A stretch of 64,000 nt of DNA from Squalus acanthias (Eukaryota): the NCBI GenBank assembly GCA_030390025.1, contig JASTWF010000034.1, forward strand, positions 4,216,001 through 4,280,000, read 5' to 3'. Positions 21,101-63,663 of this stretch are shown piece by piece; position 1 is the first letter of the stretch, and each line of letters begins with the position of its first letter. Made by a program: the position numbers and the translations under genes. Under the pieces are notes generated by a model that worked only from the letters and a program-made list of their open reading frames with translations, was not told the origin of the DNA and made no database searches.

Positions 21101-23926
21101 TAAACCAGCAGCACACTGGCCCACTAAACGAACTGCTCACCTCCCCAATAAACCAGCAGCTCACCTCCCCACTAAACCAGCAGCACACTGGCCCACTAAA
21201 CGAACAGCTCACTTCCCCACTAAACCAGCAGCTCACCTCCCCACTAAACCAGCAGCTCACTGCCCACCAAACCAGCAGCTCACTGCCCACTAAACCAGCA
21301 GCTCACTCACCACTAAACCAGCAGCTCACTGGCCCACTAAACCAGCAGCTCACTGGCCCACTCAAACAGCAGCTCACTGGCCCACTATACCAGCAGCTCA
21401 CTGGCCCACTAAACCAGCAGCTCACTAGCCCACCAAATCAGCAGCTCACTGCTCCACTAAACCAGCAGCTCACTGGCCCACTAAACCAGCAGCTCACTAG
21501 CCCACTAAATCAGCAGCTCACTGCTCCACTAAACCAGCAGCTCACTGGCCAACTAAACTAGCAGCTCACTGGCCACTAAATCAGCAGCTCACTGGCCCAC
21601 TCAACCAGCAGCTCACTCCCACAGTAAACCTAGCAGCTCACTGGCCCACTAAACCAGCAGCTCACTGGCCCACTAAACCAGCAGCTCACTGGCCCACTAA
21701 ACCAACAGCTCACTGTCCCACGAAACCAGCAGTTCACTGGCAACTCAACCAGCAGCTCACTGGCCCACTAAACCAGCAGCTCACTGACCCACTAAACCAG
21801 CAGCTCACTGGTCCACTAAACCAGCAGCTCAGCTCCCCCACTAAACCAGCAGCTCACTGGCCCACTAAACCAGCAGCTCACTGGCCCACTAAAGCAGCAG
21901 CTCACTGGCCCACTAAACCAACAGCTCACTGTCCCACGAAACCAGCAGTTCACTGGCAACTCAACTAGCAGCTCACTGGCCCACTAAACCAGCAGCTCAC
22001 TGGCCCACTAAACCAGCAGCTCACTGGCCCACTAAATTAGCAGCTCACTGGCCCACTCAACCAGCAGCTCACCTCCACAGTAAACTAGCAGCTCACTGGC
22101 CCACTCAAACAGAAGCTCACTGGCCTACTAAACCAGCGGCTCACTGGCCCACGAAACCATCAGCTCCCTGGCCCACTAAACTGCAGCTTAGAACCACTAA
22201 ACCAGCACCTCACTGGCCCACTAAACCAGCAGCTCACCTCCCTACTGAACCAGCAGCTCAACTGGCCCAATAAACCAGCAGCTCAGTGGCCCACTAAACC
22301 AGCAGCTCACTGGCCCACTAAACCAGCAGCTAAGCTCCCCACTGAACCAGCAGCTGACTGGCCCACTAAACCAGCAGCTCACTGGACCACTAAACCAGCA
22401 GCTTGCTGGCCCAGTTAACCTGCAGCTCACTGGCCCACTCAACCAGCAGCTCACTGGCCCACTCAACCAGCAGCTCACTGGCCCACTCAACCAGCAGCTC
22501 ACTGGCCCACTCAACCAGCAGCTCACTGGCCCACTCAACCAGCAGCTCACTGGCCCACTAAACCATCAGCTCACTGGCCCACTAAACCAGCAGCTCACTG
22601 GCCCACTAAACCAGCAGCTCACTGACCCACTAAACCAGCAGCTCACTGGCCCACTAAATCAGCAGCTCACTGGCCCACTCAACCAGCAGCTCACCTCCCC
22701 ACTAAACCAGCAGCTCACTGGCCCACTACACCAGCAGCTCACTGGCCCACTAAACCAGCATCTCACTTGCCCGCTAAACCAGCAGCTCACTGTCCCACTA
22801 AACCAGCAGCACACTGTCCCACGGAACAAGCAGCTCACTGTCCCACTAAACCAGCAGCTCACTGGCACACTAAACCAGCAGCTCACTGGCCCACTCAAAC
22901 AGAAGCTCACTGACCTACTAAACCAGCGGCTCACTGGCCCACTAAACCATCAGCTCACTGGCCCACTAAACCAGCAGCTCACTGACACACTAAACCAGCA
23001 CCTCACTGGCCCACTAAACCAGCAGCTCACTGGCACACTAAACCAGCAGCTCACTGGCCCACTCAAACAGAAGCTCACTGGCCCACTAAACCAGCGGCTC
23101 ACTGGCCCACTAAACCAGCACCTCACTGGCCCACTAAACCAGCTGCTCACTGGCCCACTGAACAAGCAGCTCACTGGCCCACTAAACCAGCAGCTCACCT
23201 CCCCACTGAACCAGCAGCTCAGCTCCCCACTGAACCAGCAGCTCACTTGCCCACTAAACCAGAAGCTCACTGGACCACTAAACCAGCAGCTTGCTGGCCC
23301 AGTTAACCTGCAGCTCACTGGCCCACTAAACCAGCAGTTCACTGGCAACTCAACCAGCAGCTCACTGGCCCACTCAACCAGCAGCTCACTGGCCCACTAA
23401 ACCAGCAGCTCACTGGCTCACTAAATCAGCAGCTCACTAGCTCACTATACCAGCAGCTCACTGACCCACTAAACCAGCAGCTCACTGGCCCACTAAACCA
23501 GCAGCTCACCTCCCCACTAAACCAGCAGCTCACTGGCCCACTAAACGAACAACTGACTGGCCCACTGAACCAGCAGCTCACTGGCCCACTAAACCATCAG
23601 CCCCACTAAACCAGCAGCTCACTGGCCCACTAAACCAGCAGCTCACCGTCCCAATATACCAGCAGCTCACTGGCGCACTAGACCAGCAGCTCACTGGCCC
23701 ACTAAACGAACAGCTCACTGGCCCACTGAACCAGCAGCTCACTGGCCCACTAGACCATCAGCCCCACTAAACCAGCAGCTCACTGGCCCACTAAACCAGC
23801 AGCTCACCGTCCCAATAAACCGGCAGCTCACTGGCGTACTAAACCAGCAGCTCACTGGCCCACTAAACCAGCAGCTAACTGACACACTAAACCAGCAGCT
23901 CACTGGCCCAATAAACCAGCAGCTCA
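15127..23926 (+). repeat. 24-bp minisatellite (TCACTGGCCCACTAAACCAGCAGC)n, C-rich strand on +
   Basis: Hundreds of units; the 8-aa ORF repeat SCWFSGPV confirms period 24. Confidence 0.97.
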
Positions 23927-26344: not shown

Positions 26345-26544
26345 NNNNNNNNNNNNNNNNNNNNNNNNNNNNNNNNNNNNNNNNNNNNNNNNNNNNNNNN
26401 NNNNNNNNNNNNNNNNNNNNNNNNNNNNNNNNNNNNNNNNNNNNNNNNNNNNNNNNNNNNNNNNNNNNNNNNNNNNNNNNNNNNNNNNNNNNNNNNNNNN
26501 NNNNNNNNNNNNNNNNNNNNNNNNNNNNNNNNNNNNNNNNNNNN
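26345..26544. other. Assembly gap (200 N)
   Basis: Run of N; the round length suggests a scaffolding spacer. Confidence 1.
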
Positions 26545-29500
26545 TTAGTGGGCCAGTGAGCTGCTGGTTTAGTGGGCCAGTGAGCTGCTGGTTTATTCGG
26601 CCAGTGAGCTGCTGGTTTATTGGGCCAGTGAGCTGCTGGTTTAGTGGGGAGGTGAGCTGCTGGTTTATTGTGTCAGTGAGCTGCTGGTTTAGTGGGCCAG
26701 TGAGCTGCTGGTTTCGTGGGTCAGTGAGCTGCTGGTTTATTCGGCCAGTGAGCTGCTGGTTTAGTCGGGAGGTGAGCTGTCGGTTTATGGGCCAGTGAGC
26801 TGCTGATTTAGTGGGCCAGTGAGCAGCCGGTTTAGTGGGCCAGTGAGCTTCTGGTTTAGTGGGTCATAGAGCTTCCGGTTTAGTGGGCCAGTGAGCTGCC
26901 GGTATAGTGGGCCAGGGAGCTGCTGGTTTAGTGGGCTATTGAGCTGCCGGTTTAGCGGGACAGTGACTGCTGGTTTAGTGAGCCAGTGAGCTGCTGGTTT
27001 AGTGGGCCAGTGAGCTGCTGGTTTAGTGGGGAGTTGAGCTGCTGGTTTAGTGGGGAGTTGAGCTGCTGGTTTAGTGTGCCAGTGAGCTGCTGGTTTAGTG
27101 GGCCAGTGAGCTGCTGGTTTAGTGGGCCAGTGAGCTGCTGGTTTAGTGATCCAGTGAGCTGCTGGTTTAGTTGGCCAGTGAGCTGCTGGTTTAGTGGGCC
27201 AGTGAGCTGCTGGTTTATTGTGCCAGTGAGCTGCTGGTTTATTGGGCCAGTGAGCTGTCGGTTTATTGGGGAGGTGAGCTGCTGGTTTAGTTGGCCGGTG
27301 AGCTGCTGGTTTAGTGGGCCGGGGAGCTGTTGGTTTAGTGGGCCAGGGAGCTGCTGGTTTAGTGAGCAGTGAGCTGCTGGTTAAGTGGGGATGTGAGCTG
27401 CTGGTTTAGTGGGGAGGTGAGCTGCTGGTTTAGTGGGGAGGTGAGATGCTGTTTTTGTGTGCCAGTGAGCTGCTGGTTTAGCGGGGAGGTGTGCTGCTGG
27501 GTAAGTGGGCCAGTGAGCTGCTGGTTTAGTGGGCCAGTGAGCTGCTGGTTTAGTGGGCCAGTGAGCTGCTGGTTTAGTGGGCCAGTGAGCTGCTGGTTTA
27601 TTCGGCCAGTGAGCTGCTGGTTTATTGGGCCAGCGAGCTGCTGGTTTAGTGGGGAGGTGAGCTGCTGGTTTATTGTGTCAGTGAGCTGCTGGTTTAGTGG
27701 GCCAGTGAGCTGCTGGTTTCGTGGGTCAGTGAGCTGCTGGTTTATTCGGCCAGTGAGCTGCTGGTTTAGTGGGGAGGTGAGCTGTCGGTTTATGGGCCAG
27801 TGAGCTGCTGATTTAGTGGGCCAGTGAGCTGCCGGTTTAGTGGGCTATTGAGCTGCCGGTTTAGCGGGACAGTGACTGCTGGTTTAGTGAGCCAGTGAGC
27901 TGCTGGTTTAGTGGGCCAGTGAGCTGCTGGTTTAGTGGGGAGTTGAGCTGCTGGTTTAGTGGGGAGTTGAGCTGCTGGTTTAGTGTGCCAGTGAGCTGCT
28001 GGTTTAGTGGGCCAGTGAGCTGCTGGTTTAGTGGGCCAGTGAGCTGCTGGTTTAGTGGGCCAGTGAGCTGCTGGTTTCGTGGGTCAGTGAGCTGCTGGTT
28101 TATTCGGCCAGTGAGCTGCTGGTTTAGTGGGGAGGTGAGCTGTCGGTTTATGGGCCAGTGAGCTGCTGATTTAGTGGGCCAGTGAGCTGCCGGTTTAGTG
28201 GGCCAGTGAGCTTCTGGTTTAGTGGGTCATAGAGCTTCCGGTTTAGTGGGCCAGTGAGCTGCCGGTTTAGTGGGCCAGGGAGCTGCTGGTTTAGTGGGCT
28301 ATTGAGCTGCCGGTTTAGCGGGACAGTGACTGCTGGTTTAGTGAGCCAGTGAGCTGCTGGTTTAGTGGGCCAGTGAGCTGCTGGTTTAGTGGGGAGTTGA
28401 GCTGCTGGTTTAGTGGGGAGTTGAGCTGCTGGTTTAGTGTGCCAGTGAGCTGCTGGTTTAGTGGGCCAGTGAGCTGCTGGTTTAGTGGGCCAGTGAGCTG
28501 CTGGTTTAGTGGGCCAGTGAGCTGCTGGTTTAGTGGGCAGTGAGCTGCTGGTTTAGTGGGACAGTGAGCTGCTGGTTTAGTGGGCCAGTGAGCTGCTGGT
28601 TTAGTGGGCCAGTGAGCTGCTGGTTTAGTGGGCCAGTGAGCTGCTGGTTTAGTGGGTCAGTGAGCTGCTGGTTTAGTGGGCCAGTGAGCTGCTGGTTTAG
28701 TGGGTCAGTGAGCTGCTGGTTTAGTGGGCCAGTGAGCTGCTGGTTTAGTGGGCCAGTGAGCTGCTGGTTTAGTGGGCCAGGGAGCTGCTGGTTTAGTGGG
28801 CCAGGGAGCTGCTGGTTTAGTGGGCCAGTGAGCTGCTGGTTTAGTGGGACAGTGAGCTGCTGGTTTAGTGGGCCAGTGAGCTGCTGGTTTAGTGGGCCAG
28901 TGAGCTGCTGGTTTAGTGGGCCAGTGAGCTGCTGGTTTAGTGGGCAGTGAGCTGCTGGTTTAGTGGGCCAGTGAGCTGCTGGTTTAGTGGGCCAGTGAGC
29001 TGCTGGTTTATTGGGGAGGTGAGCTGCTGGTTTAGTTGGCCGGTGAGCTGCTGGTTTAGTGGGCCAGTGAGCTGCTGGTTTAGTGGGCCAGTGAGCTGCT
29101 GGTTTAGTGGGCCATTGAGCTGCTGGTTTATTGGGCCAGTGAGCTGCTGGTTTATTGTGCCAGTGAGCTGCTGGTTTATTGGGCCAGTGAGCTGTCGGTT
29201 TATTGGGGAGGTGAGCTGCTGGTTTAGTTGGCCGGTGAGCTGCTGGTTTAGTGGGCCAGGGAGCTGCTGGTTTAGTGAGCAGTGAGCTGCTGGTTAAGTG
29301 GGTAGGTGAGCTGCTGGTTTAGTGGGGAGGTGAGCTGCTGGTTTAGTGGGGAGGTGAGATGCTGTTTTTGTGTGCCAGTGAGCTGCTGGTTTAGCGTGCC
29401 AGTGAGCTGCTGGTTTAGTGGGCCAGGGAGCTGCTGGTTTAGCGGGGAGGTGTGCTGCTGGGTAAGTGGGCCAGTGAGCTGCTGGTTTAGTGGGCCAGTG

Positions 29501-31756
29501 AGCTGCTGGTTTAGTGGGCCAGTGAGCTGCTGGTTTATTCGGCCAGTGAGCTGCTGGTTTATTGGGCCAGTGAGCTGCTGGTTTAGTGGGGAGGTGAGCT
29601 GCCGGTTTAGTGGGTCAGTGAGCTGCTGGTTTAGTGGGCCAGTGAGCTGCTGGTTTAGTGGGTCAGTGAGCTGCTGGTTTAGTGGGTCAGTGAGCTGCTG
29701 GTTTATTCGGCCAGTGAGCATCTGGTTTAGTGGGGAGTTGAGCTGCTGGTTTAGTCTGCCAGTGAGCTGCTGTTTTAGTGGGCCAGTGAGCTGCTGGTTT
29801 AGTGGGCTATTGAGCTGCCGGTTTAGCGGGACAGTGACTGCTGGTTTAGTGATCCAGTGAGCTGCTGGTTTAGTTGGCCAGTGAGCTGCTGGTTTAGTGG
29901 GCCAGTGAGCTGCTGGTTTAGTGGGCCAGGGAGCTGCTGGTTTAGTGGGCTATTGAGCTGCCGGTTTAGCGGGACAGTGACTGCTGGTTTAGTGATCCAG
30001 TGAGCTGCTGGTTTAGTTGGCCAGTGAGCTGCTGGTTTAGTGGGCCAGTGTGCTGCCGGTTTATTGGGTCAGTGAGCTGCCGGTTTAGTGGGCCAGTGAG
30101 CTGCTGGTTTAGTGGGTCAGTGAGCTGCTGGTTTAGTGGGCCAGTGAGCTGCTGGTTTAGTGGGCCAGTGAGTTGCCGGTTTAGTGGGCCAGGGAGCTGC
30201 TGGTTTACTGGGCCAGGGAGCTGCTTTTTTCGTGGGCCAGGGAGCTGCTGGTTTAGTGGGACAGGGAGCTGCTGGTTTAGTGGGCCAGGGAGCTGCTGGT
30301 TCAGTGGGCAAGTGAGCTGCTGGTTCAGTGGGCCAGTGAGCTGCTGGTTTAGTGGGCCAGTGAGCTGCTGGTTTAGTGGGCCAGTGAGGTGCTGGTTTAG
30401 TGGGCCAGTGAGCTGCTGGTTTATTGGGGAGGTGAGCTGCTGGTTTAGTTGGCCGGTGAGCTGCTGGTTTAGTGGGCCAGTGAGCTGCTGGTTTAGTGGG
30501 CCAGTGAGCTGCTGGTTTAGTGGGCCAGTGAGCTGCTGGTTTATTGGGCCAGTGAGCTGCTGGTTTATTGTGCCAGTGAGCTGCTGGTTTATTGGGCCAG
30601 TGAGCTGTCGGTTTATTGGGGAGGTGAGCTGCTGGTTTAGTTGGCCGGTGAGCTGCTGGTTTAGTGGGCCAGGGAGCTGCTGGTTTAGTGAGCAGTGAGC
30701 TGCTGGTTAAGTGGGTAGGTGAGCTGCTGGTTTAGTGGGGAGGTGAGCTGCTGGTTTAGTGGGGAGGTGAGATGCTGTTTTTGTGTGCCAGTGAGCTGCT
30801 GGTTTAGCGTGCCAGTGAGCTGCTGGTTTAGTGGGCCAGGGAGCTGCTGGTTTAGCGGGGAGGTGTGCTGCTGGGTAAGTGGGCCAGTGAGCTGCTGGTT
30901 TAGTGGGCCAGTGAGCTGCTGGTTTAGTGGGCCAGTGAGCTGCTGGTTTATTCGGCCAGTGAGCTGCTGGTTTATTGGGCCAGTGAGCTGCTGGTTTAGT
31001 GGGGAGGTGAGCTGCTGGTTTAGTGGGTCAGTGAGCTGCTGGTTTAGTGGGCCAGTGAGCTGCTGGTTTAGTGGGTCAGTGAGCTGCTGGTTTAGTGGGT
31101 CAGTGAGCTGCTGGTTTATTCGGCCAGTGAGCATCTGGTTTAGTGGGGAGTTGAGCTGCTGGTTTAGTGTGCCAGTGAGCTGCTGTTTTAGTGGGCCAGT
31201 GAGCTGCTGGTTTAGTGGGCTATTGAGCTGCCGGTTTAGCGGGACAGTGACTGCTGGTTTAGTGATCCAGTGAGCTGCTGGTTTAGTTGGCCAGTGAGCT
31301 GCTGGTTTAGTGGGCCAGTGAGCTGCTGGTTTAGTGGGCCAGTGAGCTGCTGTTTTAGTGGGCCAGTGAGTTGCCGGTTTAGTGGGACAGTGACTGCTGG
31401 TTTAGTGGGACAGTGAGCTGCTGGTTTAGTGGGACAGTGAGCTGCTGGTTTAGCGGGACAGTGAGCTGCTGGTTTAGTGGACCAGGAGCTGCTGTTTAGT
31501 GGGCGAGTGAGCTGCTGTTTAAGTGGGCCAAGGAGCTGCTGGTTTAGTGGGCCAGTGAGCTGCTGGTTTAGTGGGCCAGTGAGCTGCTGGTTTAGTGGGC
31601 CAGGGAGCTGCTGGTTCAGTGGGCCAGGGAGCTGCTGGTTTAGTGGGCCAGTGAGCTGCTGGTTTAGTGGGCCAGTGAGCTGCTGGTTTAGTGGGCCAGT
31701 GAGCTGCTGGTTTAGTGGGCCAGTGAGCTGCTGGTTTAGTGGGGATGTGAGCTGTT
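26545..31756 (-). repeat. Same 24-bp minisatellite in inverted orientation
   Basis: (GCTGCTGGTTTAGTGGGCCAGTGA)n on +. Confidence 0.97.
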
Positions 31757-43864: not shown

Positions 43865-46245
43865 CACTGTAACACTCTGATGTACCCCACATCCCTCACT
43901 GTAATACTCTGATATAAATCCACACCACTCACTGTAACACCCCAAACACGCTTCTGTAATTCTGATAAACATGGCGCTACTCACTGTATCACTGATATAA
44001 CGCACACCCCTCATTGTAACACTCTGATATAAACTACACCACTCACTGTAAGACTCTGATATACCCAACATCCCTTACTGTAACACTCTGAGATACCCCA
44101 CACCCCTCACTGTAACACCTTGATATACCCCACACCCCTCACTGTAACACTCTGATATAAACCAAACCCCTCAATGTAACACTCTGATATACCACACACT
44201 CCTGACTGTAACCCTCTCTTACATACATCAAATCTCTTAATGTAACACACCGTTATACCCCATGCCCCTCATTGTAACACTCTCTGATATACTGCATACC
44301 CCTCGCTGTAGCACTCCAATATACCAAACACCCCTGACTGTAAACCTGATATACCCGACACCCCTCACTGTAACACTCTCTGATATACGCCATACCCCTC
44401 GCTGTAACACTCTGATATACCCGACACCATTCAGTGTAACACACTGATATAATCCCAACCCCTGACTGTAACACACTGTTATACAACGCAACTCTCCCTG
44501 TAACACTCTGAGGTAACCCACACCACTCATTGTATTACTCTGATATAAACCACACCCCTCACTGTAACACTCTGATGTAATCGCACGCCCCTGACTATGA
44601 TATTCTGATATACCCCACACACCTCTTTCTGCAACACACCGATATACCCGACAGCCATCACGGTAACAACATGATATACCCAACACCCCACACGGTAACA
44701 CTATGATATATCCCATACCCCTCGCTGTACCACTGTGATATACCCTACATCACTCACTTTGACACTCTGATATACCCCTCATTTTAATCCTCTCGTACAT
44801 ATCCCAAACCTCTCACTGTAACAGACCAATATACCCCACGCGACTCACTGTAACTCTCTGATATACCCCATAGCCCTCACTGTAACTCTCTAATATACCC
44901 CACACGCCTCGCTGTAAAACACTGATATATCCCACACGACTCACTCTAAGACTCTAATATACCCCACACCCCTCGCTGTAACACACTGATATATCCCACA
45001 CGACTCACTGTAACTCTCTGATATACCCACACCCCTCAATATAACACTCTGATATACCCCACACAACTCACTGTAAAACTCTGATATACCCCACACCCCT
45101 CACTGTAACACTATGATATACCCCACACAACTCACTGTAACACTCTGATATACCTCACACCCCTCACTGTAACACTCTGATATGCCCCACATCCCTCACT
45201 GTAACTCTCTGATGTATTCCACACGCCTCGCTTTAACACGCTGATATACGCCACATGACTTACTGTAACACTCTGATATACCCCGCACCCCTCACTGTAA
45301 CACACTGATATACCCGACACCCCTTAATGTAACAATCTGATATAAACCCACACCGCTCATTTTATTACTCTGATGTACACCACACCCCTCACTGTAGCAT
45401 TCTGATATAAACCCACTCCCCTGACTATAACCCTTTGATATATCCCACACACCCCTCACTGTAACACACCGATATATCCCACACCCCTCATGGTAACACT
45501 CTGATATACCTATCACACCACACGGTTACACTCTGATATAGCCCACACCCCTCGCTGTAACAATCTGATATACCCCACTCACCTCCCTTTAACACTCTGA
45601 TATATCCACATCATTCACTTGAGCACTCTGATATAACCCTCACTTTAATCCTCTTACATAACCCAAACCTCTACTGTAATGGACCGATATACGCCCCTCA
45701 CCTCCCTTTAACACTCTGATATACCTCACACCCCTCAATGTAAAACTGTGATTTACCACACACCACTCACTGCAAGACTATGATACACCCCACATCCCTC
45801 ACTGTAACTTTGATTAGCCCACATCCCTCGCTGTAACACTGCGATTTACCCCACACTCCTCACTCTAACACTCTGATATACCGGACACCTCTCTCTCTAA
45901 CTCTCTGATATGGCCCACAGCCTTCACTGTAACACTCTGATATACCCCACACGACTCACTTTAACTCTTTGATATACCCCACGCACCTCACTGCAACACG
46001 TTGATAAACCCCACACCCCTCACTGTAAAACTTTGATACAGCTCTCACTGTAATCCTCTCTTACATATCCCAACCCCCTCACTGTAACACTCTGATACAC
46101 CCCTCATTGTAATCCTCTCTTACATACTGATAAACCCCACACCACTCACTGTCACACTATGATACATGCCACACTCTGGGCTGTTATTCCCCACAGCACT
46201 CACTGTAATACTAATATTGTTCCACACCACTCACTGTTATCACTG
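43865..46245 (+). repeat. 32-bp minisatellite (CACTGTAACACTCTGATATACCCCACACCCCT)n, diverged
   Basis: cactgtaac at 44108 and 44140; persists for ~2.4 kb. Confidence 0.93.
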
Positions 46246-49887: not shown

Positions 49888-52800
49888 ATAGAAACATAGA
49901 AACATAGAAGATAGGAGCAGGAGTTGGTCATTCGGCCCCTCGAGCCTGCTCTGCCATTTAATGAGATCATGGCTGATCATCAAAATTCAGAACCCTGTCC
50001 CTGCTTTCTCCCCACATCCCTTGATCCCTTTAGCCTTAAGAAATATATCTAACTCCTTCTTGAATATATTATAATGAGTTGGCCTCAACTGCCTTCTGTG
50101 GTAGAGAATTCCACAGGTTCACCAATCTATGGTTGAAGAAATTCCTCCTCATCTCAGTCCTAAATGGCTTCCCCCTTATCCTTAGACTGTGACCCCTGGT
50201 TCTGGACTCCCCTGCCATCGGGAACATCCTTCCTACACCTAGTCTATCTAGTCCTGTTTGAATTTTATATGTTCAATGGGATCCCCTCTCATTCTTCTAA
50301 ACTCTAGCGAATACAAGCTCAATCGTCCCAATCTCTCTTCATACGTCATTCCTGCCATCCCAGGTTTCAGTCTGGTGAATCTTCGCTGCACTCCCTTCAT
50401 GGCAAGAACATCCTTCCTCATTAAGGCGACCAAAACTGCACACAATACTCAAGATGTGGTCTCACCAAGGCCCTGTACAACTGCAGCAAGACATCCTTGC
50501 TCCTGTACTTGAATCCTCTCGTTATGAAGGCCAACATACCATTTGCCATCTTAACCGCCTGCTGCACCTGCGACTGGTGCACAAGGACACCCAGGTCTCG
50601 TTGCACTTCCCCTTTTCCCAATCTATTGCCGTTCAGATAATAATCTGCCTTCCTGTTTTTGACACCAAAGTGGATAACCTCACATTTATTTACATTATAC
50701 TGCATCTGCAATGCATCTGCCCAATCACCCAACTTGTCCAAATCATACTGGAGTTTCTCTGCATCCTCCTCATAACACACACGCCCACCCAGCTTTGTGT
50801 CATCTGCAAACTTGGAGATATTACATCTAGTTCCCTCGTCTAGATCATTAATATATATTGTGAATAACTGGGATCCTAGCACCGATCCCTGCGGTACCCC
50901 ACCAGTCACTGCCTGCCACTCGGAAATTGACCCATTTATTCCAACTCTTTGCTTCTTGTCTGCCAACCAGTTCTCCATCCAAGTCATTACCTTACCCCCA
51001 ATCCCATGTGATTATTCTTTGCACGCCAATCTCTTATGCGGGACCTTAGCGAAGGCCTTCTGAAAGTCCAAATACACCACATCCACTGGTTCTCCCTGAT
51101 CTATTCTACCAGTTACATCCTCAAAAAATTCCAGTAGTTTAGTCAAGCATGATTTACCTTTTGTAAATCTAAGTTGACTTTGTCCGATCCCTTCACTGTT
51201 TACCAAGTGCTCTGCTATTACATCTTTTATAATGGACTCTAACATTTTCCCCACTACCGATGTCAGGCTTACCGGTCTATAATTCCCCGTTTTCTCCCTA
51301 CCACCTTTTTAAATCGTGGGGTTACATTTGCTACTCTCCAATCCATGGGAAATGTTCCAGAGTCGACAGAATTTTGAAAGATGATCAGCAATGCATCTAC
51401 TATTTCTAGGGCCACTTCCTTAAGTACCCTATGATGCAAATTATCAGGCCCTGCGGATATATCGGCCTTCAATCCCGTCAATTTCCCTAACACCATTTCC
51501 CTACAAATACTGATTTCATTCAGTTCTTCCCTCTCATTAGACCCTATGTTCCCCGACATCTCTGGGAGGTTATTTGTGTTCTCCTTTGTGAAGACAGAAC
51601 TAAAGTATGTATTAATAGAAACATAGAAAAATAGAAGATAGGCGCAGGAGTAGGCCATTCGGACCCTCGAGCCTGCTCTGCCAATTAATGAGATCATGCC
51701 TGATCATCCAAATTCAGTACCCTGTTCCTGCTTTCTCCCCATATCCCTTGATCCCTTTAGCCTTAAGAAATATATCTAACTCCTTCTTGAATATATTTAA
51801 TGAATTGGCCTCAACTGCCTTCTGTGGTAGAGAATTCCACAGGTTCACCACTCTCTGGGTGAAGAAATTCCTCCTCATCTCAATCCTAAATGGCTTCCCC
51901 CTTATCCTTAGACTGTGACCCCTGGTTCTGGACTCCCCTGCCATCGGGAACATCCTTCCTGCATCTAGTCTGTCTAGTCCTGTTAGAATTTTATAAGTTT
52001 CAATGAGAACCCCTCTCATTCTTCTATACTCTAGCGAATACAAGCCCAATCGTCCGAATCTCTCTTCATACGTCATTCCTGCCATCCCAGGTATCAGTCT
52101 GGTGAATCTTCGCTGCACTCCCTCCAAGGCAAGAACATCCTTCCTCAGATAAGGCGACTAAAACTGCACATTGGTCAGCCATTTATTTCTTCCCCATTAT
52201 AAATTCCCCTGATTCTGACTGCAAGAGACCTACGCTTAACTTCACCAATCTTTTTCTCTTCACATATCTATAGAAGCTTTTACAGTCAGTTTTTATATTC
52301 CCAGCAAGCTTACTCTCATACTCTATTTTCCCACTCTCAATTAATCCCTTTGTTCTCCTTTGCTGAAATCTATACTGCTCCTAATCCTCATGTTTGCTGT
52401 TTTTTCAGGCCAATTTATATGTCCTCTCCTTGGATCTTATGCTATCCCTAATTTCCCTTGTTAGCCATGGTTGAGTCACCTTTTTTGTTTTATTTTTATG
52501 CCAAACAGTGATGAACAAATTCTGTAGTTCATCCATGCGATCTTTAAATGTTTGCCATTGCCTATCCACTGTCAACCCTTTAAGTAACGTTCCCCAATCC
52601 ATCCTAGCCAATTCGCGCCTCATACCATCGTAGTTTCCTTTATTTAAATTCAGGACCCTAGTCTCTGAGTCAACTACTTCACTCTCCATCTTAATGAAGA
52701 ATTCTATCATATTATGATCGCTCCTCCCCAAGGGGCCTCGCACAACAAGATTGCTAATTAATCCTTGCTCATTACATAATACCCATTCTAAGATGGCCTG

Positions 52801-52992
52801 ATCTCGAGTTGGTTCTTCGACATATTGGTCCAGGATACCATCCAGTATACACTCAAGGAATTCCTCCTCCACAGTATTGTCACTAATTTGGATTGCCCAA
52901 TCTATATGTAGATTAAAGTCACCCATGATAACTGCTGTGCCCTTATTGCACGCGTCACTAATTTCCCGTTTAATGCCATCCCCAACCTCAGC
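49888..52992 (-). mobile_element. CR1 LINE (EN plus RT, decayed) with a second CR1 3' fragment nested at ~51615-52170
   Basis: IMGDFN, SDHNMI and FADDTKL; two (tttctatg)n tails at ~49890 and ~51616; host copy resumes at 52171. Confidence 0.92.
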
Positions 52993-52995
52993 ATA

Positions 52996-53663
52996 TGTTT
53001 TGTATGTGAGATGACTCAAGACTATTAATATAAGATGTATGTAATAAAGATGAACTTGATGTGTACGGATCTCCCTGCTCAAGGCAACGGCGCGAAACTT
53101 AACAATTGAAACCTGCATAACAGGAAAAACCCCCACAGAGACAGCATCGAAAACCCATCGAAACTCACCATCGAAACTCAAGAGCCATTAAAAGGTGTTA
53201 ACAAACAATTCACTTAATCAAGAAATGGCACCAGCCACTGCAGACAGACACATGTTCAAAGGAAAGCCAATCAAGAACTGCCATAAAACTGAGACCCAAT
53301 CCTTAGGTCTTAGCAATTTAGACTGGAGACAGTGGACTTAAAAAGACATAAAATAAGGAACCCAACGGCTCTCACTCTCTTTCTGGAGGACCGCTCGGAA
53401 AAACAGGAAGCCCTCCCTCTGCAGACCAGACCAAGAAGCGAGGAAAAAGGCAGCGTGCATTGCTTGACTCAGGGAAGTACAAGTCTGTTTAAATCGAACC
53501 CATTGCCTTACCTGTTGTAATCGAGTAGAGTCCATAGGATACCAGTAGGCTATTGTTTTGATGTGTATGAGTGTGTTTGTTTAATAAACTTATTCCAAGT
53601 TGTTTCAAATGAATTGGTCTTGCTGTCAATGTAATGCCAGTCGAAATAAAAAGCTTATAAAAC
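52996..53663 (+). repeat. Probable 5' LTR
   Basis: Starts tgtttt and ends aaaac; aataaa at ~53583 and ~53645; immediately followed by a tRNA-Pro-like PBS. No second LTR is available to confirm. Confidence 0.6.
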
Positions 53664-53681
53664 TTTTGGCTCGTCCAGGAT
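53664..53681 (+). promoter_or_regulatory. Degenerate tRNA-Pro primer-binding site
   Basis: ttttggctcgtccaggat vs canonical TGGGGGCTCGTCCGGGAT; 13 of the 3' 14 nt match. Confidence 0.7.
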
Positions 53682-56600
53682 CTGGCGAGACAGCTTTAGA
53701 TCATTCTTTTAAACAATTGGAAATTACGGGAGTTGTGATTCTGACCTGTGGAGCGAAGTTTAAAAATAAATTCAAAAGATGCAGGATGAAGGGTCGGGGG
53801 GCATACAAAAAGACAACAAAATACGTAGCTGTAGCCTTCCATGAGAACATATACGAAAAGGTATCCATAAGGGACTTACAAGAGTTACGGGCACGATGCA
53901 TCTGTAAGGGCCAACATGCAGTCCTTTGGGAAGCTCGTGTCATTTATCCAGGAGAGGGTAGATGAGGGAAAGCTAAGGCCCAAACAGGCAAATGGTCTCT
54001 TGGCATTCGGGGCACATTACTGTGCTCGGAGAGATGAGGAATTAATGAGGCAGGATGCAAAAGAGATTCGAGATTTAAAGGGAGAGATACAAGATTTAAA
54101 AGAACTAAAATTCAAAGAGATTCAACTAAAAGAAAAGGAGATTCAAAATATTAAAGAACAGAAAGAAGAAGGCATCCAGCTTGTTAGACAGTTAAAGGAG
54201 GGTGAAATGCAGCATTTGAGACAAGAAATCGATCGATTAGGCCACAGTATCAGGCAACTAGAAAGAGGAGCCGAGCAGGCAGCTTCGTTGCTACAGCAAC
54301 AAAGCCTCTCACATTTAAATGCAGGAGCAGCTGTCGCGGCAGCAAATGAAATCAAATTAAAATCAAGAAATATAAATTGGAAAACCTGGGGCTCCGGCAG
54401 GAAGTAGAAGACGTTAGGGGGGCATTAAGGGAAGCAATTAAGAAGCTACATAGGGAGGCAGACCACTCCCGGTGCCGCCTAGAAATAGCGCGGCTGAAGA
54501 GTAAATTAGGGCAGCAACAGGCTCTAGTATCCGCAGTAACACGGGGAGCCATAATAGAGACAACAGAAAGGGACGAGGGGAAGACAGATTTGGAAGAGGA
54601 AGGCAGTCAGTGTAATCCCCAGCAGGGCGGCGAAGGATAGGATACCTTGGAGACACAAGGGCCAACCGTAGCAGTAGTGAACACTTCTTTACAGCGTAAT
54701 GTGCATGATCACATGACGAGTAACCATACCGAATCAGGGCCCATATCTGGTGCTGACACCACGGCGTGTAGCCACGAGTTAGGGCCCTATTAATTTTGGG
54801 GACGACCCACTGGTCGTTAATAGGAGGTGGATTATTTCAGGAGGAATCGCCCCGAGTTAGAAGAGGCAGACTTAACACGAGTCTTCCTCTTGTCCTGTTC
54901 CACTTTTTAAAGAATAATCTGCCAGACGCGATCCTCCAGCGTGGCACAGCGACCGATGCTGTCGTGACCGAGATCCTAAACCATATAGGGATCTAAAACT
55001 TAACCTTAGTGGATTTGCTTAGTCAGACTAAACAGCGCCCAGATGAGACCCCGAGAGCGTTCAGTAATCGCCTGTACGATATCTATGAACGTCCCCAGAA
55101 CCAGGCACCCGCAAATGCTGCAGCAGGAAAGAATCAGGAACCATTCAAAACGATGTTCCTGACCCAGCTCCACTCTTTAGTTAAAACCACACTGGGTATA
55201 GCCCTGAGGCCCGCCGATCAGTGGACAGATATAGAGATTAACGTTCAAAGAGCCTGGGAGATGGTAAAAGACCAGTTAAAGGTGAAGTCACCACCCACCG
55301 CAAAGAATCAGTGTCAGCGGTGGAGGGATCTAGGTACTACCCCTTTAGAGGACAGTGGTTTAATTGTAAGAAGGAAGGTCACCTCGCAAAACACTGCAGG
55401 AGACCCAGACAGGCACCGGACCACGATGCAACGCATAGATCCCTCCCGACGGATGAACCCGAGCCCTCTGGGGTGGAACAACAATTGGCTCAGTTAGTTA
55501 CCCTTTTAAAAAGGACGAATTCAAGTCCTCTGGGACGGATCAATGATTGGACCAGTTGATAACCCTCATGAAAGCTCAAATTGTCACGGGGCGGGGGGGG
55601 GGGGGGGGATGCAAAATCATTTACCGGTGCACGCAATCGCCAGTGCACACCCATTGGAAATGCAAATTCCTATTGTCAATGCACACCCATTGGAGGGACC
55701 CCTGCAAGGATCCACCCTATGACGGGGATTGTCCCCTAACGATTGGTCGGAAGTGGGGTTCCGATATGATGGTAGCGGGAGACCAGTAGTCCTTGTTGTC
55801 TTAAAAGTGGACCGGCAGCAGATTATGCTTATAGACACTGGCTCAGCCGTTACCATCATCCACACCCCATACCCTGAACGCCATGCAGCGGCGGGCAAGG
55901 GTTGTATGGCCCTTAAAGGGTTTATTGGTGATACAACCACCGCGTATACAGGGAAGGCCTCTGAACTTCAGTTGGGAGGCCTCATCTGTAAGGTCCCAGC
56001 GCCGATGCTGATGACCACCCCCGACGGAAGGGGAATGTTAGGGACTGATGTGTTGGATCAATATGGCGCGGTAATAGATTACAATCGGGACTGTGTTTGG
56101 ATGGGATTGAGAAATAATGCAAAAGTGACAGAAATTTCAGATGCTCACGCTGTTTTTGCTATTATAATGCTATCCGAGTATGATCCTCCGGGGAGCGAAA
56201 ATGAAGCTGTGGCAAAACTAATTCAGGAACACCTAGCGGTGTTTGCCACGTGCAAGCACGATTGTGGAAAAATGGGAGGCGAAGAGTCTATTGAGGGACC
56301 CCCCCCACTCATTCACTAACAGTACCCCATCCCAAGGGAGAGTCACCCGAGACACCATAAAATCTCTAGTCGAGAAGGGTGTTGTTATGACAGGCACTTC
56401 CACAACCAATTCACCCACACGACTGGTTAAAAAGCCTGATAGCAGCTGGCGACTGACTATTGCCGACAGAAAGTTCAATTCTGTAACGCCAGCCTGCTCA
56501 CCGGTAGTAAGAGAAGCTCCCACCATATTATCTCAAATTGCTGCTGGTTCCAAGTACTTCTCGACCCTCGACATGGCCAATTGATTCTGGAGTTTCCCTG

Positions 56601-58723
56601 TTAAAAGGGAGGACCAGTTAAATTCACGATCACAGTTGAGGATCAGAGCTACACCTGGACATGCCTGCCTCAGGGGGTCCACAATGCCCCCCATGATCTT
56701 CCACTAAAGAATGGCTGCGGTTTTAAAATACTTTTCCCGCCCTACCTGCTTGCTACAGTATGTAGACGGTCTACTGCTGGCAACCGATAACATGGAGGAG
56801 CATCTGTCCCTTTTGCACGTACTGTTGACATTATTGGCTCAGGCGGGACTAAAGGTGAATCCCCGTAAGGCTCAGTTGGTAAAAGAACGGGTCACCTTTC
56901 TGGGAGTGTCCATTTCTCCAGAGGGAGCGTCCCCCGACTCCTTCAAGGTGGAGATAATGCAGCGACTACCATTACCCATTTCCAAAACAGCCCTACGATC
57001 ATTCTTGGGTTTGGTGGGCTACCAAAGGGACTTTATCCCAGGCTTTGCAGAATGCGCAAAGCCCCTGTATGATTTGATAAAACTGCAGGGTGATGACATA
57101 CGCCCGGCATGGACTAATGATCACACCCAGTCCGTGGCCATATTAAAAACTGCAGTGATACAGGCCGCATGTCTGATTCCTCCAGTCCCACGCAGCCCTT
57201 CCATTTGGAGGTCGGGGCCACAGAACAAAGCCTCGCCGCAGTTCTGTGCCAAACGCGAGCTGATCGACTACCGTCCATTGCATATGCGTCTGGAATCCTG
57301 CAGGGGGCAGAAAAGACGTACACCGCGTGCGAGCGCCACCTGCTGGCCGTCTTCTGGGCGGTACATCATTTTACCTTTATTTCTGGCTGCAAGCTACCAT
57401 CCTTCACAGAGCTCATACGCCTCTGAGCCTACTGATGAAACCTGGAGATTCGCTAGTTTCCTCGCAGCACCTCAGCAAATGGACATTGGAATTTATGGAA
57501 AGAGACATTGGTATCATTTCCAAACCCACCACATTGGTGCCACAATTTCTGGTTTATGCGGGGGAACCGCATGAATGTCCGCTACCCCTGATTAACTTTG
57601 AGACCCATCCTGTGCAGAAAGAGCCCATACAGGGAGCCCCAGATGTCTACGTCGATGGGTCCTCATATCACATCGAGGGATGCCCCCACACCGGGTATGC
57701 TGTGGTATTGCCAGAGACAACCGTCCAGCGATGATGCAACCGACAGTCCACACAATATGCAGAAATCGCCGCACTTCTAAGCACCGTGATAGAAACCTCA
57801 GATAGGCCCGTGAATATTTGGTCCGATAGTGCCTATGCTATAAACACCATGCTCTCCTTGCCCCTATACCACAAAAATGACTACCGTACAATTGACGGTA
57901 ACGAACTGGTCCATGGGGCCTGGTTACGCCTGCTCTGGTCATACCTTAAACAGCGATCCCATCCCTGTTTCATAGAAAATGTAGCAGCCCATAGAAAAGG
58001 TGTCCACAAAGTGAGGGAAATTCCAGAGCAGACAGAGCAGCCAAGGACGCTGCGATTTATGGGGAGATAGAGGATATAGTTGTTGAGCCCTGAAACGGCT
58101 CTCCAACATTCACCTAGATTTAAATTCCCTGCAGCAGCAATACTGGCCATACGCCGTTGTAAGCGCCTGGCACGAGGGAGGCAGATCCTTTCCTCAACCG
58201 ACAGCCTGGGACCCCAATACCAGACTAGCCACTGACCCTGACTCAGCGGAGTAGTTGGTGATGTTGAAAAGAAAGCCATACATCTGCCCGGTGTTGTGTG
58301 TTCCACCAGAGCTGGGTCAGGAACTGCTGTCCCTCTTTCACACCTACACAACGGCAGGGCACTATTCGGCCCTGGCAATCTTCAGTAAGTCAGCAACCAC
58401 AGCTTGGTGGTCTTCCATGAGGGAAACAATCAACCAAATGTGGCACCATGCCGACCGTGCCTGCAGCCCAATCCTCCCACGTGCACTAACCCAGCCTTGC
58501 TTCAAAGCGCGCCCCCACCTCAAGGGCCATGGACTCACCTCCAAATAGACGTCATTGGGCCACTTCCACAGGTTCAAGGCACTTCTTGGCATGCCCTAGT
58601 GGTGGTGGATCAATTCACAAAATGTATCGAAGAATTCCCCTTCCGCTCCAACACCGCAATCACGGATGACAAAACACTATTAAATCATATGTTATGTCGG
58701 TGGGGTGTAACGGTAAAAGTGAA

Positions 58724-59190
58724 CAAGGGAATATAGTTAATTGTTAATTTGACATGATGCCCTCTACAACTGGGAATAAAGTTACAGTTAATTGTTAATT
58801 TGACATGACACCCGCTACACCGGGAAATAAATTTACAGTTAATTGTTAATTTGACATGATGCCCCCTACACCTGGGAATAAAGTTACAGTTAATTGTTAA
58901 TTTGACATGATACCCTCTGCACTGGGGAATAAAGTTACAGTCAATTGTTAATTTGACATGATACACTCTACACCAGGGAATAAATTTACAGTTAATTGTT
59001 AATTTGACATGATTGCCTCTACACCGGGGAATAAAGTTACAGTTAATTTTTAATTTGACATGATGGCTTCTACAACTGGGAATAAATTTACAGCACGGAC
59101 TAAAGTTACGGTTAATTGTTAATTTGACATGACACCCTCTACACCAGCGAATAAAGTTACAGTTATTTGTTAATTAGGGTTGATACCCTC
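58724..59190 (+). repeat. 51-bp minisatellite (ACAGTTAATTGTTAATTTGACATGATGCCCTCTACACCGGGGAATAAAGTT)n
   Basis: ttgttaattt at 58741 and 58792. Confidence 0.93.
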
Positions 59191-59384
59191 TGTCGTAAGA
59201 ATGAGCCTTACGCATGGTGAACTTAAAGTAAGCTTTAATCAACTAAAAAGGTGCTACATACAAAAGAGGTCTTACTCTATGCCTCTCCAGGATCCAACTG
59301 ATCAGCCCAGTATTTATCCTGGACTAATCACAGGAAGTGATGTAATAAAGTTCAAGTCACAGGAAGCTGTATTGTGTTACCACA
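59191..59384 (-). repeat. 3' LTR
   Basis: Direct repeat of 63470-63663. Confidence 0.97.
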
Positions 59385-59451
59385 TTCCCCCCCCCCCCCC
59401 AAAAGATTAGGAGGCCGGGATGAAGTTCGAGTCACAGGAAGCTGTATTGTG

Positions 59452-61960
59452 TTACCACATTCTCCCTCCATTTCGTAGCCGCTGGACGAGGGAGAGCCGC
59501 ACCCATTTGGGTTCTCGTCGCGGTAGAGGGCCCCTAGCCTGTTTACCCGCCGCGGGTCGTGGACCAAAGTCCGAGTGATCCAGCACGCTCTGTGAGGGGT
59601 CAGGACGATCCTGACTGTGTACTGGCGCCCGAACGGGTGTCGGGCAGGGCTGTGGCAGATCCGTTTCCGAGCGTATGGTACGGGGTGGATCGTGGCTGCG
59701 TGTGCGAGCCCCGACGGGCTCATAGTCAGTCTGCCCCAGGTCGGCACGCTGGAGTGAGGTACCAGCCGGCGTCAGATCCAGATCGTGATGAGAGGCACCT
59801 GGCGAGCCCAGAGATGTGCCTGGTACAATATCATCCCCTGGTGTCCCTCTATGTTTCGGCGGGCAGCGAGCCAGATCCCGCAATGACACGGTAGATTCCC
59901 GACCGTCAGGATACCGAATATAGGCGTAGGTAGGGTTGACGTCAGTGAGCTCAACCTCATCTACCAGGGGGTCATTCTTAGACGCCCGAACATATCTTCG
60001 GAGTAGCACTGGTCCCGGTGCAGTCAGCCACGACGGGAGAGATATCCCATAGGGTGAGCGACGCTGAAATCGGAAGAACCGTTCATGAGGCGTCGTACTT
60101 GTGGCGGTCGAAAGGAGGGACCGTGTGGAGTGTAATGCGTCTGGAAGTACTGCTTCCCATTGCTGGTTGGGTAGGCCCCGAGATCTCAAAGCCAGACGTA
60201 CCGCATTCCAGATGATAGCGTTAAAACGCTCGACTTGCCCATTCCCGACCGGATGATAAGGCGTCGTTCTGCTGGCAGCAATACCCCGTTCCGAGAGATA
60301 GGCCTTGAGTTCTCCTGACATAAAAGAAGGGCCCCGATCCGAATGAACATAGGATGCCATGCCACAGAAAGCAAATACCTGCTCAAGGCAGCTGATAACC
60401 GTGTTCGTCAGCATATTGGGGCAGGGAAAGGCAAACGGAAAACGGGAATACTCATCGACCATGGTCAATAGATAAGTGTTGCGAGTTGAAGAGGGCAACG
60501 GCCCCTTAAAATCGATGCTAAGCCATTGCATTGGCTGGGTCGCATGTATGAGTATACCACCCGAGGGGCGGAAAAACTGAGGTTTCAATTCCGCACAGAC
60601 TCTGCAGTCCGAGCACATCTTCTTTACATCCCCGGTAGAGAATGGGAGATTTCGGGACCGCACGAAGTGTAGCATGCGAGTAACGCCCGGATGACACAAC
60701 CCATCATGGATGTCTACGAGCGTAGAGGGTGCCATAGCGGAGCAGAATGCTCGTGTGAGGGTATCCGGAGCCACATTCTCCTTGCCAGGTCGATAGTGGA
60801 TGGTGTAACCAAAAGAGGCCAATTCCAGCCGCCAAAGCTGGATTTTATTATTTTTAATTTTGGTCCGTTTTCGATTATCGAGCATGAAGGCGACCGATCG
60901 CTGGTCCGTGATTAAGTTAAAGTGCTGGCGAGCTAGGAGATGAGTCCACTTCCGTACTGCCTCTATGATGGCTGTAGCTTCTTTCTCGACTGGAGGATAA
61001 TGTAGCTCAGCCCCTTGAAAAGTCCTGGACAAAAATGCCACCGGACGACCTTCCTGATTCAGAGTGGCCGAGATCGCCACCTCCGAGGCATCACACTCAA
61101 CAACAAAAGGAAGACTCTCATTGATGGAGTGAAGAGCCGCTTTCTCCAACTGTTTTTTCAGGAGTTTAAAGGCTGCAACAGCCGCTGTGTCTAGTGGGAA
61201 TGTGCTGGCCTTCAGTAGAGGTTGGATTCGGTCCGAGAAGTTAGGAATCCATTTAGCATAGTATGCAAACAGGCCGAGGGCCCGGCGCAAGGAGGCCGGA
61301 TTCTTAGGTGGCGGGAGTTCTTGGAGTGGGCGAAGCCTTTCAGGGTCAGGTTTAATGATGCCATTGCCCACACAATAGCCAAGGATGTTGATGGTGGTTG
61401 TGACTCAATGGATTTAGCCGCATTTAATGTCAAATTACGGTGCTGGAGTGCATCCCAAAATCGTTGGAGATTGGCGTCATGTTCCCGCTGATTGCGACCT
61501 GCGACAGTAATATTGTCCAGATAAGGAAACGTATCCTTTAAGTCTTCCTGTTTGACCAGGTCATCCATTGCTCGCTGGAAGACAGCCACTCCATTAGTGA
61601 CCCCAAAGGGGAGGCGACGAAATTGATACAGCCGTCCATTGGCTTCAAAGGCCGTATACTGCTTGTCTGAGACCTTCAAGGGTACCTGATGATAGGCACT
61701 TTTCAGATCATATGTTGAGAACACCGTGTACTCAGCCAGTTTATTAACCATATCATCGATGCGCGGCAATGGGTATGCGTCCAAGTCCGTATATTGATTG
61801 ATGGTCTGTGAATAGTCAATGCACAGCCGTTTCTTGTGAGGTTGTAGAGGGTAACGACCTGGGCGCGCCATGGCGACGAACAAGGCTCGATGATATCCTC
61901 TGCTAAAAGCCGAGAAATCTCAGCCGCAATAAAAGACTGGTCTTCCTGACTGAAACGTCG
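59452..61960 (-). pseudogene. Gypsy pol (RT, RNase H, integrase) with frameshifts at ~61850 and ~61400
   Basis: RLCIDY, YPLPRID, DLKSAYHQ, PFGV, YLDN; VECDAS, TDQRS; HHCC, IDFKGP, HSDRG and NGQVER. Confidence 0.92.
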
Positions 61961-63391
61961 TTACTTTGTTATAATCAGTTTGCATCGAGGAGGGATACTG
62001 GTAAACAGTGAGGGTTCATCCAGTGAAGCTGCTGACAATGCACAGAACGGTAATCGAGGTCGTATATTAGAAATAGTGAGTTCAGGTTTGGATCCGCCGA
62101 ACTCAATGGTGAGCTTCTTATGCTGCTTTTGAAAATCTAGCCCTAAGATAAGATCACTACATAAGTCCTTGAGCACCGAAAGCCGGGTGGAGGGATACCT
62201 GTGACCATTAAGTGTTATTTCAACCATACAACAGCCAGAAATTCTGGTATTAAGTGATGACTGAGCCATCGCAATTGCCTGGTCCGATGGGAAAACATGT
62301 AGCTTTAACTCTGCAACAATCTGTTCCCTAATGAAACTATCAGTGCTACCTGAGTCAATTAAGGCATCTAAAGTATGTCCATTAATTGATGCTTTTGTAG
62401 CTGCATGGAATAGGTTCTGAGGACAAGCAGCTGTAATTGGTGTCGTTGCACAAAGAGTGGCTGAAACTCTAGGTGTGTTTCTTCGAGAGAAAACCCGAGA
62501 GGAAGCACGATAGATTTTAGCCGGAACATCTTGATAAGCCCTTACCGGGGCAGTTCGGTAGGACTTAGCTTGATAAGCCCTCGTAGAGGCTCTTGATAGG
62601 CAAACCTTTGCAAAATGACCGTTTTTGTTGCAATGACTGCAAAACGCATTGCGAGCAGGGCAGAATTTCCGAGGGTGGAACTCATCACCACAAAAGAAGC
62701 ATTTCTTCGATTGCCAAGAGGCTGCCACAGTGGGGTCATCATCCTCTTCATCAGTGAAGTCATCAGATTGATCGTCAGGGATAAAGACCTCCCTAATAGA
62801 GTTCACCTGTGGCCTCTTAAATTGCCTGACTGTAGTTAAGGCAGCAGACCGAGGTCTGGGCACTGTATAAAGGTCTGCATTTCTTTTTGCCAGATCTAGA
62901 GAGCAAGCCATGTCATAAGCTCTCTGAAGCTCAAGTGTCTTACTTTCCAGTAGACGCTGGCGTATAAATGGGGAGACAAGCCCGCAGATGAAAGCATCAC
63001 GGATCATTTCTTCACGGTACAGCTCAGCTGAGGCCGCCTGAAAGTTACAGTCCATACTAAGTCTGCGAAGCTCTTGGAGGAATTTATCAATGGATTCCTC
63101 CGGCCCTTGTTGGGCTGTAGCTAGTAGATGTCTGGCATAGACCTCATTCGGTGTCTTAGTATATAGTCTTTTAAGCGTCCGAATTGCCTCCTCGTAACTG
63201 CCCCATTCCTCGACATACTGAAATACATTCGGGGTGACACAGTTGATGAGTATCCGCAATTTTGAGTCATCATCAGCCTTGCAATATTCGAGAAAATTGT
63301 CAAACGTGCGATACCAGTGTTTCCACACCTTACCGGCTGCTGGGGTGTTTGGGTCCAAGTCAAGACGCGATGGTTTAATGATGTTTTCCAT
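61961..63391 (-). CDS. Gypsy gag-protease ORF, 476 aa
   Basis: Two Cys/His knuckles (CFFCGDEFHPRKFC, CSHCNKNGHFAKVC) and LIDSGS; the frame continues into RT past the TAA at 61961. Confidence 0.9.
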   Translation of the reverse strand: MENIIKPSRLDLDPNTPAAGKVWKHWYRTFDNFLEYCKADDDSKLRILINCVTPNVFQYVEEWGSYEEAIRTLKRLYTKTPNEVYARHLLATAQQGPEESIDKFLQELRRLSMDCNFQAASAELYREEMIRDAFICGLVSPFIRQRLLESKTLELQRAYDMACSLDLAKRNADLYTVPRPRSAALTTVRQFKRPQVNSIREVFIPDDQSDDFTDEEDDDPTVAASWQSKKCFFCGDEFHPRKFCPARNAFCSHCNKNGHFAKVCLSRASTRAYQAKSYRTAPVRAYQDVPAKIYRASSRVFSRRNTPRVSATLCATTPITAACPQNLFHAATKASINGHTLDALIDSGSTDSFIREQIVAELKLHVFPSDQAIAMAQSSLNTRISGCCMVEITLNGHRYPSTRLSVLKDLCSDLILGLDFQKQHKKLTIEFGGSKPELTISNIRPRLPFCALSAASLDEPSLFTSIPPRCKLIITK

Positions 63392-63469
63392 GATGGGTGA
63401 TTCCCTGGATCCTTAGTTCCGAGTTCGTCCAAAAAGTTTGAGTGCGAAGTTTTTCAAAGTTGATTAAAT

Positions 63470-63663
63470 TGTCGTAAGAATGAGCCTTACGCGTGGTGAA
63501 CTTAAAGTAAGCTTTAATCAACTAAAAAGGTGCTACATACAAAAGAGGTCTTACTCTATGCCTCTCCAGGATCCAACTGATCATCCCAGTATTTATCCTG
63601 GACTAATCACAGGAAGTGATGTAATAAAGTTCAAGTCACAGGAAGCTGTATTGTGTTACCACA
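63470..63663 (-). repeat. 5' LTR
   Basis: Direct repeat of 59191-59384, upstream of gag. Confidence 0.97.

Follow-up and report, generated by a model that had tools for sequence, protein, structure and literature searches.

The DNA considered here is a stretch of 64,000 nucleotides from Squalus acanthias (assembly GCA_030390025.1, contig JASTWF010000034.1, positions 4,216,001 to 4,280,000 of the forward strand), which is called the window throughout and is numbered from its first letter. Toward its 3′ end lies a dead provirus copy, a long terminal repeat (LTR) element that starts at ca 52993. The 5′ LTR, the primer binding site (PBS) and gag are thus all found upstream of the span 55729..58722 to which a first-pass annotation had assigned the element. 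The parts of the window copy are the following.

52993..53659, forward strand: 5′ LTR of ca 670 bp, matching both ends of other copies, without its first ~19 bases
53664..53681, forward strand: PBS, decayed, 4 nt past the LTR end
53786..55722, forward strand: gag with stops and frameshifts and a putative start, ending at an in-frame TGA
55723..56150, forward strand: aspartic protease, continuing the gag frame past its stop, with LIDTGS at 55828
56300..57120, forward strand: reverse transcriptase (RT), frameshifted (RVT_1, E 3e-9), its active-site motif altered in the window copy
57175..57500, forward strand: likely tether, a Ty3-type RNase H fold without the first catalytic Asp (PF17919/PF17917 and motif census)
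57636..58060, forward strand: second RNase H, catalytic-type (PF00075, E 5e-8), with a frameshift near its C-terminus
58300..58724, forward strand: integrase zinc domain and start of the core, truncated (PF17921, E 4e-7)
58725..58735, no strand: 3′ break, a few bases resembling a long interspersed nuclear element (LINE), after which the sequence switches to a 51-bp satellite

LINE-like sequence also adjoins the broken start of the 5′ LTR. An intact 18-mer, which we take to be a PBS for tRNA-Pro, is present in 5 of the 10 other 5′ LTR-flanking sites that were read, and the virus would have primed on this tRNA. The Gag protein has a coiled-coil N-terminal half, a motif resembling the major homology region at 55033 and one CCHC zinc knuckle at 55359-55397. 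The protease matches to PF13975 and PF00077 are weak and lie under the curated cut-offs, while the RT is 88% identical to that of copy L037 when the out-of-frame stretch is excluded. The integrase core begins at 58536 in the window, and a complete rve domain is found in copy L038. The rest of the integrase, the env remnant and the 3′ LTR have been lost from the window copy. In complete copies the LTRs run from TG to CA and are flanked by 4-bp target duplications, which are exact in L031, L039 and a solo LTR within L036, and have one mismatch in L028 and L038. This solo LTR (L036:7029-7943) belongs to the same family and is inserted, with its 4-bp duplication, in the env of another copy.

The presence of two RNase H (RH) domains, proposed from motifs in the first-pass annotation, is borne out. 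The motifs PFHLEVGAT (57196-57222), VYVDGSS (57645), AEIAAL (57759), IWSDSAYA (57816) and VAAH (57981) are all in place, and the first domain has in addition IAYASG at 57277 and ERHLLAVFW at 57331. Two separate domains score over the curated Pfam cut-offs, with PF17919 (E 2e-15) and PF17917 (E 2e-13) in 57121-57423 and the PF00075 match in 57735-58067. In the window the two are separated by frameshifts, but in copy L028 a single natural frame of 514 aa covers the end of the RT as well as PF17919/PF17917 at aa 120-249 and PF00075 at aa 299-435. Among 25 loci examined, the strand of the first RH lacks the Asp in all 22 in which the motif was matched, while the first Asp of the second RH is retained in 15 of the 19 with a matched motif. 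In the Gypsy references, by contrast, the Asp is retained and a second RH is absent in 10 of 10, and the Gypsy element next to the provirus likewise differs from it, as had been claimed, in having a single RH with the Asp present. A single-RH Ty3/Gypsy identity is thus ruled out by the dual RH, the missing first Asp and an RT that falls outside Metaviridae.

The domain order, protease-RT-RH-integrase with a tether and an acquired RH, is that of canonical Retroviridae. In retroviruses the old RH turned into a tether and a newly acquired RH cleaves (PMC7947760). Since the RT lies inside the canonical retroviruses (see below), the dual RH is the ordinary retroviral arrangement and no surprise. 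The first RNase H of this family is likely a non-catalytic tether, and the second would carry out RNA cleavage.

The best relatives of Pol are found in X. tropicalis (60%) and in coelacanth and frogs (47-49%); each of them has both RH families, and there are further matches in coelacanth and bowfin. For the RT tree we used 57 rows, 39 of them from 120 Pol matches and none from a second set of 82 matches. The labelled rows comprise three lokiretroviruses (loki), identified by visual comparison with the published RT alignment, 6 of 14 contigs with the foamy RT motif, one contig with the motif of snakehead retrovirus (SnRV), called L091, three endogenous retroviruses (ERVs) of this genome with a foamy-type env, 7 class I-like rows and 13 Gypsy rows. 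In this tree the family falls inside the canonical retroviruses (support 100/99) with loki outside, and it is sister to the X. tropicalis element P0001 (100/98). It is also outside Gypsy (100/100), and the RT does therefore not nest in a single-RH Gypsy clade. The RT identity is 67% to the Xenopus element and 71% to a sister family, compared with 36-39% to the loki rows. Approximately unbiased (AU) tests reject a grouping of the family with loki (p 0.018) and with foamy viruses (p 0.006), while the grouping with the SnRV-like L091 is not rejected (p 0.23).

The earlier suggestion of a basal retrovirus-related lineage holds in so far as the element is of an early-branching retrovirus type and not an ordinary Gypsy. 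The affinity to loki and Odin elements that came with it is not supported, given the position of the RT and the AU result for loki. A quick integrase tree resolves only the pairing with P0001. The capsid/nucleocapsid part of Gag from copy L039 aligns with the L091 Gag (E 1e-7), and P0017, a member of the same unresolved basal group, has an integrase tail motif like that of Ovex1. No placement of this clade was found in the available parts of the NYNRIN and RTOM papers (PMC9447858, PMC9514029).

At the gag-pol junction (window 55720-55731; L077:4906), the stop is an in-frame TGA in 15 of the 16 copies read, and the next base is C in 14 of 16. The same TGA-C is found at the junction of a sister family, while L091 has TAG. 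UGA-C is a leaky stop context, and retroviral readthrough normally takes place at UAG. In this family Gag-Pol would be made through readthrough of UGA.

The first-pass annotation considered that env could not be assessed because the 3′ end is lost. This is superseded by the other copies, which carry an env that in most of them shares one deletion. The genome amounts to 3.7 Gb, and 20 other copies were fetched from it; 40 of 212 candidates were scored for the RH region, and 40 of 512 first-look candidates for the LTR. The best 40 of the 212 RH-region candidates are 92-97% identical to the window copy, the window itself excepted. Among the fetched copies, 15 are env-deleted, two have env, and three are deleted from integrase through to the LTR. 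The junction is common to 14 of the 15 env-deleted copies, in which ca 1.8 kb is missing and the first env codons are joined to the membrane-anchor end. The search for copies with env yielded five same-family loci (L034, L036, L075, L076 and L081), in which env lies between pol and the 3′ LTR. Genome-wide, DNA from the env interior is found at these five loci and in one fragment at ≥93% identity (13 of 13 candidates scored), while the deletion junction is spanned at 40 of 40 scored places, the best 40 of 114 candidates. At least 40 env-deleted loci thus stand against 5 env-bearing ones, and the sequence flanking the deletion on either side is 92% identical between the two forms.

Each of the env-deleted copies L031, L038 and L039 is bordered by its own flanks and its own target duplication, and therefore the env-deleted form itself was copied. 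It is likely that the family multiplied mostly after the deletion. The divergence within LTR pairs (Kimura two-parameter) ranges from 0.023 to 0.053 in six copies, with values of 0.125-0.149 for L021 and L022. Over 52637-58733, the 5′ flank included, the window copy and L021 share 98% identity. L021 and six similar loci have a LINE-like piece within the integrase, followed by the rest of the integrase, the env remnant, the 3′ LTR and the 51-bp satellite, and L021 holds ca 2.3 kb more than the window before this satellite. The window copy thus arose by segmental duplication of an env-deleted insertion, and at least ca 2.3 kb was afterwards lost from its 3′ end. As a sequence of events, after entry into the germ line a variant with an in-frame env deletion of ca 1.8 kb would have made most of the copies, probably spreading either through retrotransposition within the cell or through complementation in trans. 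One of these insertions would have taken up the LINE piece in its integrase and then been segmentally duplicated, and the duplicate in the window would subsequently have lost its 3′ end into the satellite.

We now consider the envelope protein. In three loci the same-family env has an RxKR site and a hydrophobic stretch resembling a fusion peptide, with a variant in a fourth, and it has a C-terminal membrane anchor. Because every same-family env piece is broken, a natural Env frame of a sister family was modelled instead, which is 46% identical to the same-family Env over 280 aa. The model obtained with 43 sequences has a pLDDT of 70.8 and a pTM of 0.53. Its top Foldseek matches are paramyxovirus and pneumovirus F proteins (E 4e-9, TM ~0.3), and comparison by VIA gives Z 10.6 for these (rmsd 5.1 over 283 residues) and Z 8.2 for foamy Env. 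Against predicted viral structures (BFVD), walleye epsilonretrovirus Envs are matched with E 6e-11 and 2e-9. The sister-family Env profile matches a foamy Env entry of the PDB (E 0.0018) and, by hhalign, the L091 Env (E 4.6e-6, probability 86.5), and the Env matches Fusion_gly clusters at 0.93 in the Atlas. Cell entry would use an Env with a predicted fold of the paramyxovirus-F/foamy type. The named homologues come from sharks, a skate and frogs, the same host pattern as for Pol, and one Env search gave two matches, both in sharks. Relatives of a shark env are also present in the genome at 67-83% identity, in keeping with a cartilaginous-fish host.

Several searches on this Env type were negative. 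Pfam finds no family on the L036 env frame and no fusion-protein family above cut-off on 22 Env homologues, PF03408 (Foamy_virus_ENV) gives no match, and a PDB search with a single Env sequence returns coiled-coil noise alone. As for the literature, we found no description of an F-type Env in SnRV-like ERVs or in this family, in a coverage that leaves most subscription papers and the bioRxiv supplements outside, and an F-like Env of walleye epsilonretroviruses or SnRV was not found stated in the literature examined.

Some further observations concern this Env type in other elements and hosts. The Envs of the walleye epsilonretroviruses and of the SnRV-type L091 also look F-like. This Env type has at least 135 matches in the genome, at 33-100% identity, showing that several sister families coexist; in one of them, L052 has an uninterrupted env frame of 784 aa beside a broken pol. 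Closely similar open env frames occur in Scyliorhinus and Heterodontus (same 90% cluster) and in Chiloscyllium (P0121, P0218 and P0122), and it is possible that this conserved shark env has been co-opted. In a stricter first look, no intact orthologue of P0121 was found in the S. acanthias genome, where broken relatives are 63-83% identical. In frogs, Env homologues form clusters of many near-identical open copies (P0126 and P0144) in Mantella (16 members) and Bombina (3), which suggests young expansions.

On the basis of these results, we consider it very probable that the window element is the remains of an early-branching canonical retrovirus of class III-like type, probably akin to the SnRV-related elements of 'clade Huo', with a likely tether RH, putative UGA readthrough, an Env of predicted F fold and an expansion of its env-deleted form. 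A number of points weigh against this reading. Membership in the SnRV group is unsupported by the RT tree because the base of the canonical clade is not resolved. The RH tree (unrooted, 155 columns) places the family RH on the side of loki and foamy viruses, with SnRV and class I on the opposite side (99/97). The trees contain only three loki rows, and are without Odin, ERV-L, ERV-S, fish foamy-like ERVs (FLERVs), XtrFLERV/CmiFLERV, CmiERV1 and class II viruses. The Env that was modelled is that of the sister family and not the family's own, an AlphaFold model from 3 sequences reaches a pLDDT of 27.6, and the Pfam match to Fusion_gly has an E of 0.036. Finally, no clear hairpin or other RNA structure is seen 3′ of the gag stop (z −1.0 in the window, with 4 of 16 copies below −2).

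The alternative that survives best, which we nevertheless regard as unlikely, is that the family belongs to a 'foamy-like' group of sharks and frogs (CmiFLERV and XtrFLERV) as a basal relative of the spumaretroviruses; the two readings may in part describe the same lineage under different labels. XtrFLERV is nested with shark CmiFLERVs (PMC5512871), the same pairing of shark and Xenopus as in our RT tree, the best solved-structure matches of both Pol and the Env profile are foamy proteins, and the RH sides with foamy viruses and loki. However, the grouping with foamy viruses is rejected by the AU test, performed without fish FLERV rows, and the foamy-env ERVs of this genome form a separate clade together with foamy viruses (100/100). 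The zinc knuckle in Gag and the in-frame gag-pol junction are also listed as unlike spumaviruses (PMC2717909), and the lack of a PF03408 match points in the same direction. As a separate candidate, a true foamy ERV was rejected on the RT position outside the foamy clade (p-AU 0.006), the Gag CCHC at 55359 and the in-frame stop before the protease.

A lokiretrovirus, which would be the first in cartilaginous fishes, with 0 of 6 chondrichthyan genomes loki-positive in Fig. S1 of the original screen (PMC7947760), is rejected by the RT tree and the AU test; we hold it to be very improbable. The dual RH with a Ty3-like tether, the F-type Env and the 'NYNRIN-like' labels of relatives all fit the description of loki, and the RH falls on the loki and foamy side. 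On the other hand, the RT lies outside the loki clade (100/99; p-AU 0.018), its identity to the loki rows is far below that to the Xenopus element, and the RT motifs of loki and Odin in the published alignment are absent by eye. An F-type Env is not specific to loki either, as foamy Env is also of this type (PMC11468914).

An env-less LTR retrotransposon, either Odin-like or a Gypsy with an independently gained second RH, can practically be dismissed: most copies do lack env and the window copy shows none, but the deleted copies keep the env start joined to the membrane-anchor end, the env-bearing copies match them on both sides of the deletion, and the RT is outside Gypsy. An Odin identity through absence of env is ruled out by the env in five loci.

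The assignment to an early-branching canonical retrovirus has a wider implication, since the family combines a fusogen of F type with a retroviral backbone that is canonical and non-foamy. In the literature examined, the F-type Env is ascribed to loki (PMC7947760, PMC9040795) and to foamy viruses (PMC11468914), and its presence here bears on whether retroviral env had a single or a repeated origin. One can speculate, with more doubt than confidence, that an unnamed early-branching clade of sharks, frogs, coelacanth and perhaps bowfin has kept an ancestral kit of Ty3-like tether, loki/foamy-type RH and F-type Env, with UGA rather than UAG readthrough. As the Envs of foamy viruses, loki, SnRV and walleye viruses are all F-like, the paramyxovirus-type fusogen would in that case be the original retroviral envelope, and the gamma/lenti-type Env a later replacement.

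Other features of the window and the genome are given here for completeness. The neighbouring Gypsy (59190-63662) has LTRs that are 99% identical and a single RH with the Asp. It interrupts the 51-bp satellite and is flanked on either side by a short direct repeat. Large satellite arrays are found at 851-7881, 15127-23927, 26545-31754, 43980-46103 and 58735-59190, with units of 67 bp, 24 bp (as two inverted blocks), 32 bp and 51 bp, and an open reading frame (ORF) of 945 aa lies on the minus strand at 24026-26863, between the two 24-bp blocks. Elsewhere in the genome, the ERVs L061-L072 give 11 Foamy_virus_ENV matches, and their RTs are sister to foamy viruses.

Compared with known systems, SnRV-like ERVs in cartilaginous fish are already known, an SnRV-clustering lineage having been described in elephant shark (PMC4422223), and the interest here is in the F-type Env, the RH affinity, the UGA junction and the env-less expansion. 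With the SnRV-related class III elements ('clade Huo', PMC6001957; CmiERV lineage I, PMC4422223) the family shares a canonical non-foamy RT, the dual RH and a cartilaginous-fish host, and with the SnRV-type L091 a Gag with coiled coil and one CCHC, an in-frame gag-pol stop and a homologous Env. It differs from SnRV in that the RT tree leaves the relation of the two without resolution, in an RH that falls opposite to that of SnRV in the RH tree, in UGA instead of UAG at the junction, in an Env of ca 780 aa (sister family) instead of a 1134-aa frame, and in that no accessory ORF was seen.

Lokiretroviruses (PMC7947760) and Odin (PMC9040795) have the Ty3-like tether with an acquired RH, and loki also an F-related Env and an RH that falls on the family's side of the RH tree, while the family RT is outside the loki clade by the AU test and is without the loki/Odin RT motifs. 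Odin, described from sea anemones, lacks env (PMC9040795). Foamy viruses and FLERVs (PMC5512871) share the F-type Env fold, the RH affinity and the combination of shark and Xenopus hosts seen for XtrFLERV/CmiFLERV, but the family has an RT outside the foamy clade, a zinc knuckle, a readthrough-type gag-pol junction and no Foamy_virus_ENV match. Ovex1 of birds (PMC2717909) belongs with its class III-like RT to the same unresolved basal group and has an in-frame gag-pol; it is however a conserved single-copy element without zinc knuckle or LTRs and with another ORF3, whereas the present family is a decayed multicopy ERV. Finally, in the env-less superspreader ERVs (Magiorkinis 2012, cited in bioRxiv 2021.11.23.469661) the env-deleted form likewise outnumbers the env-bearing one, and the present family is a clear fish case of an ERV multiplying after env deletion.

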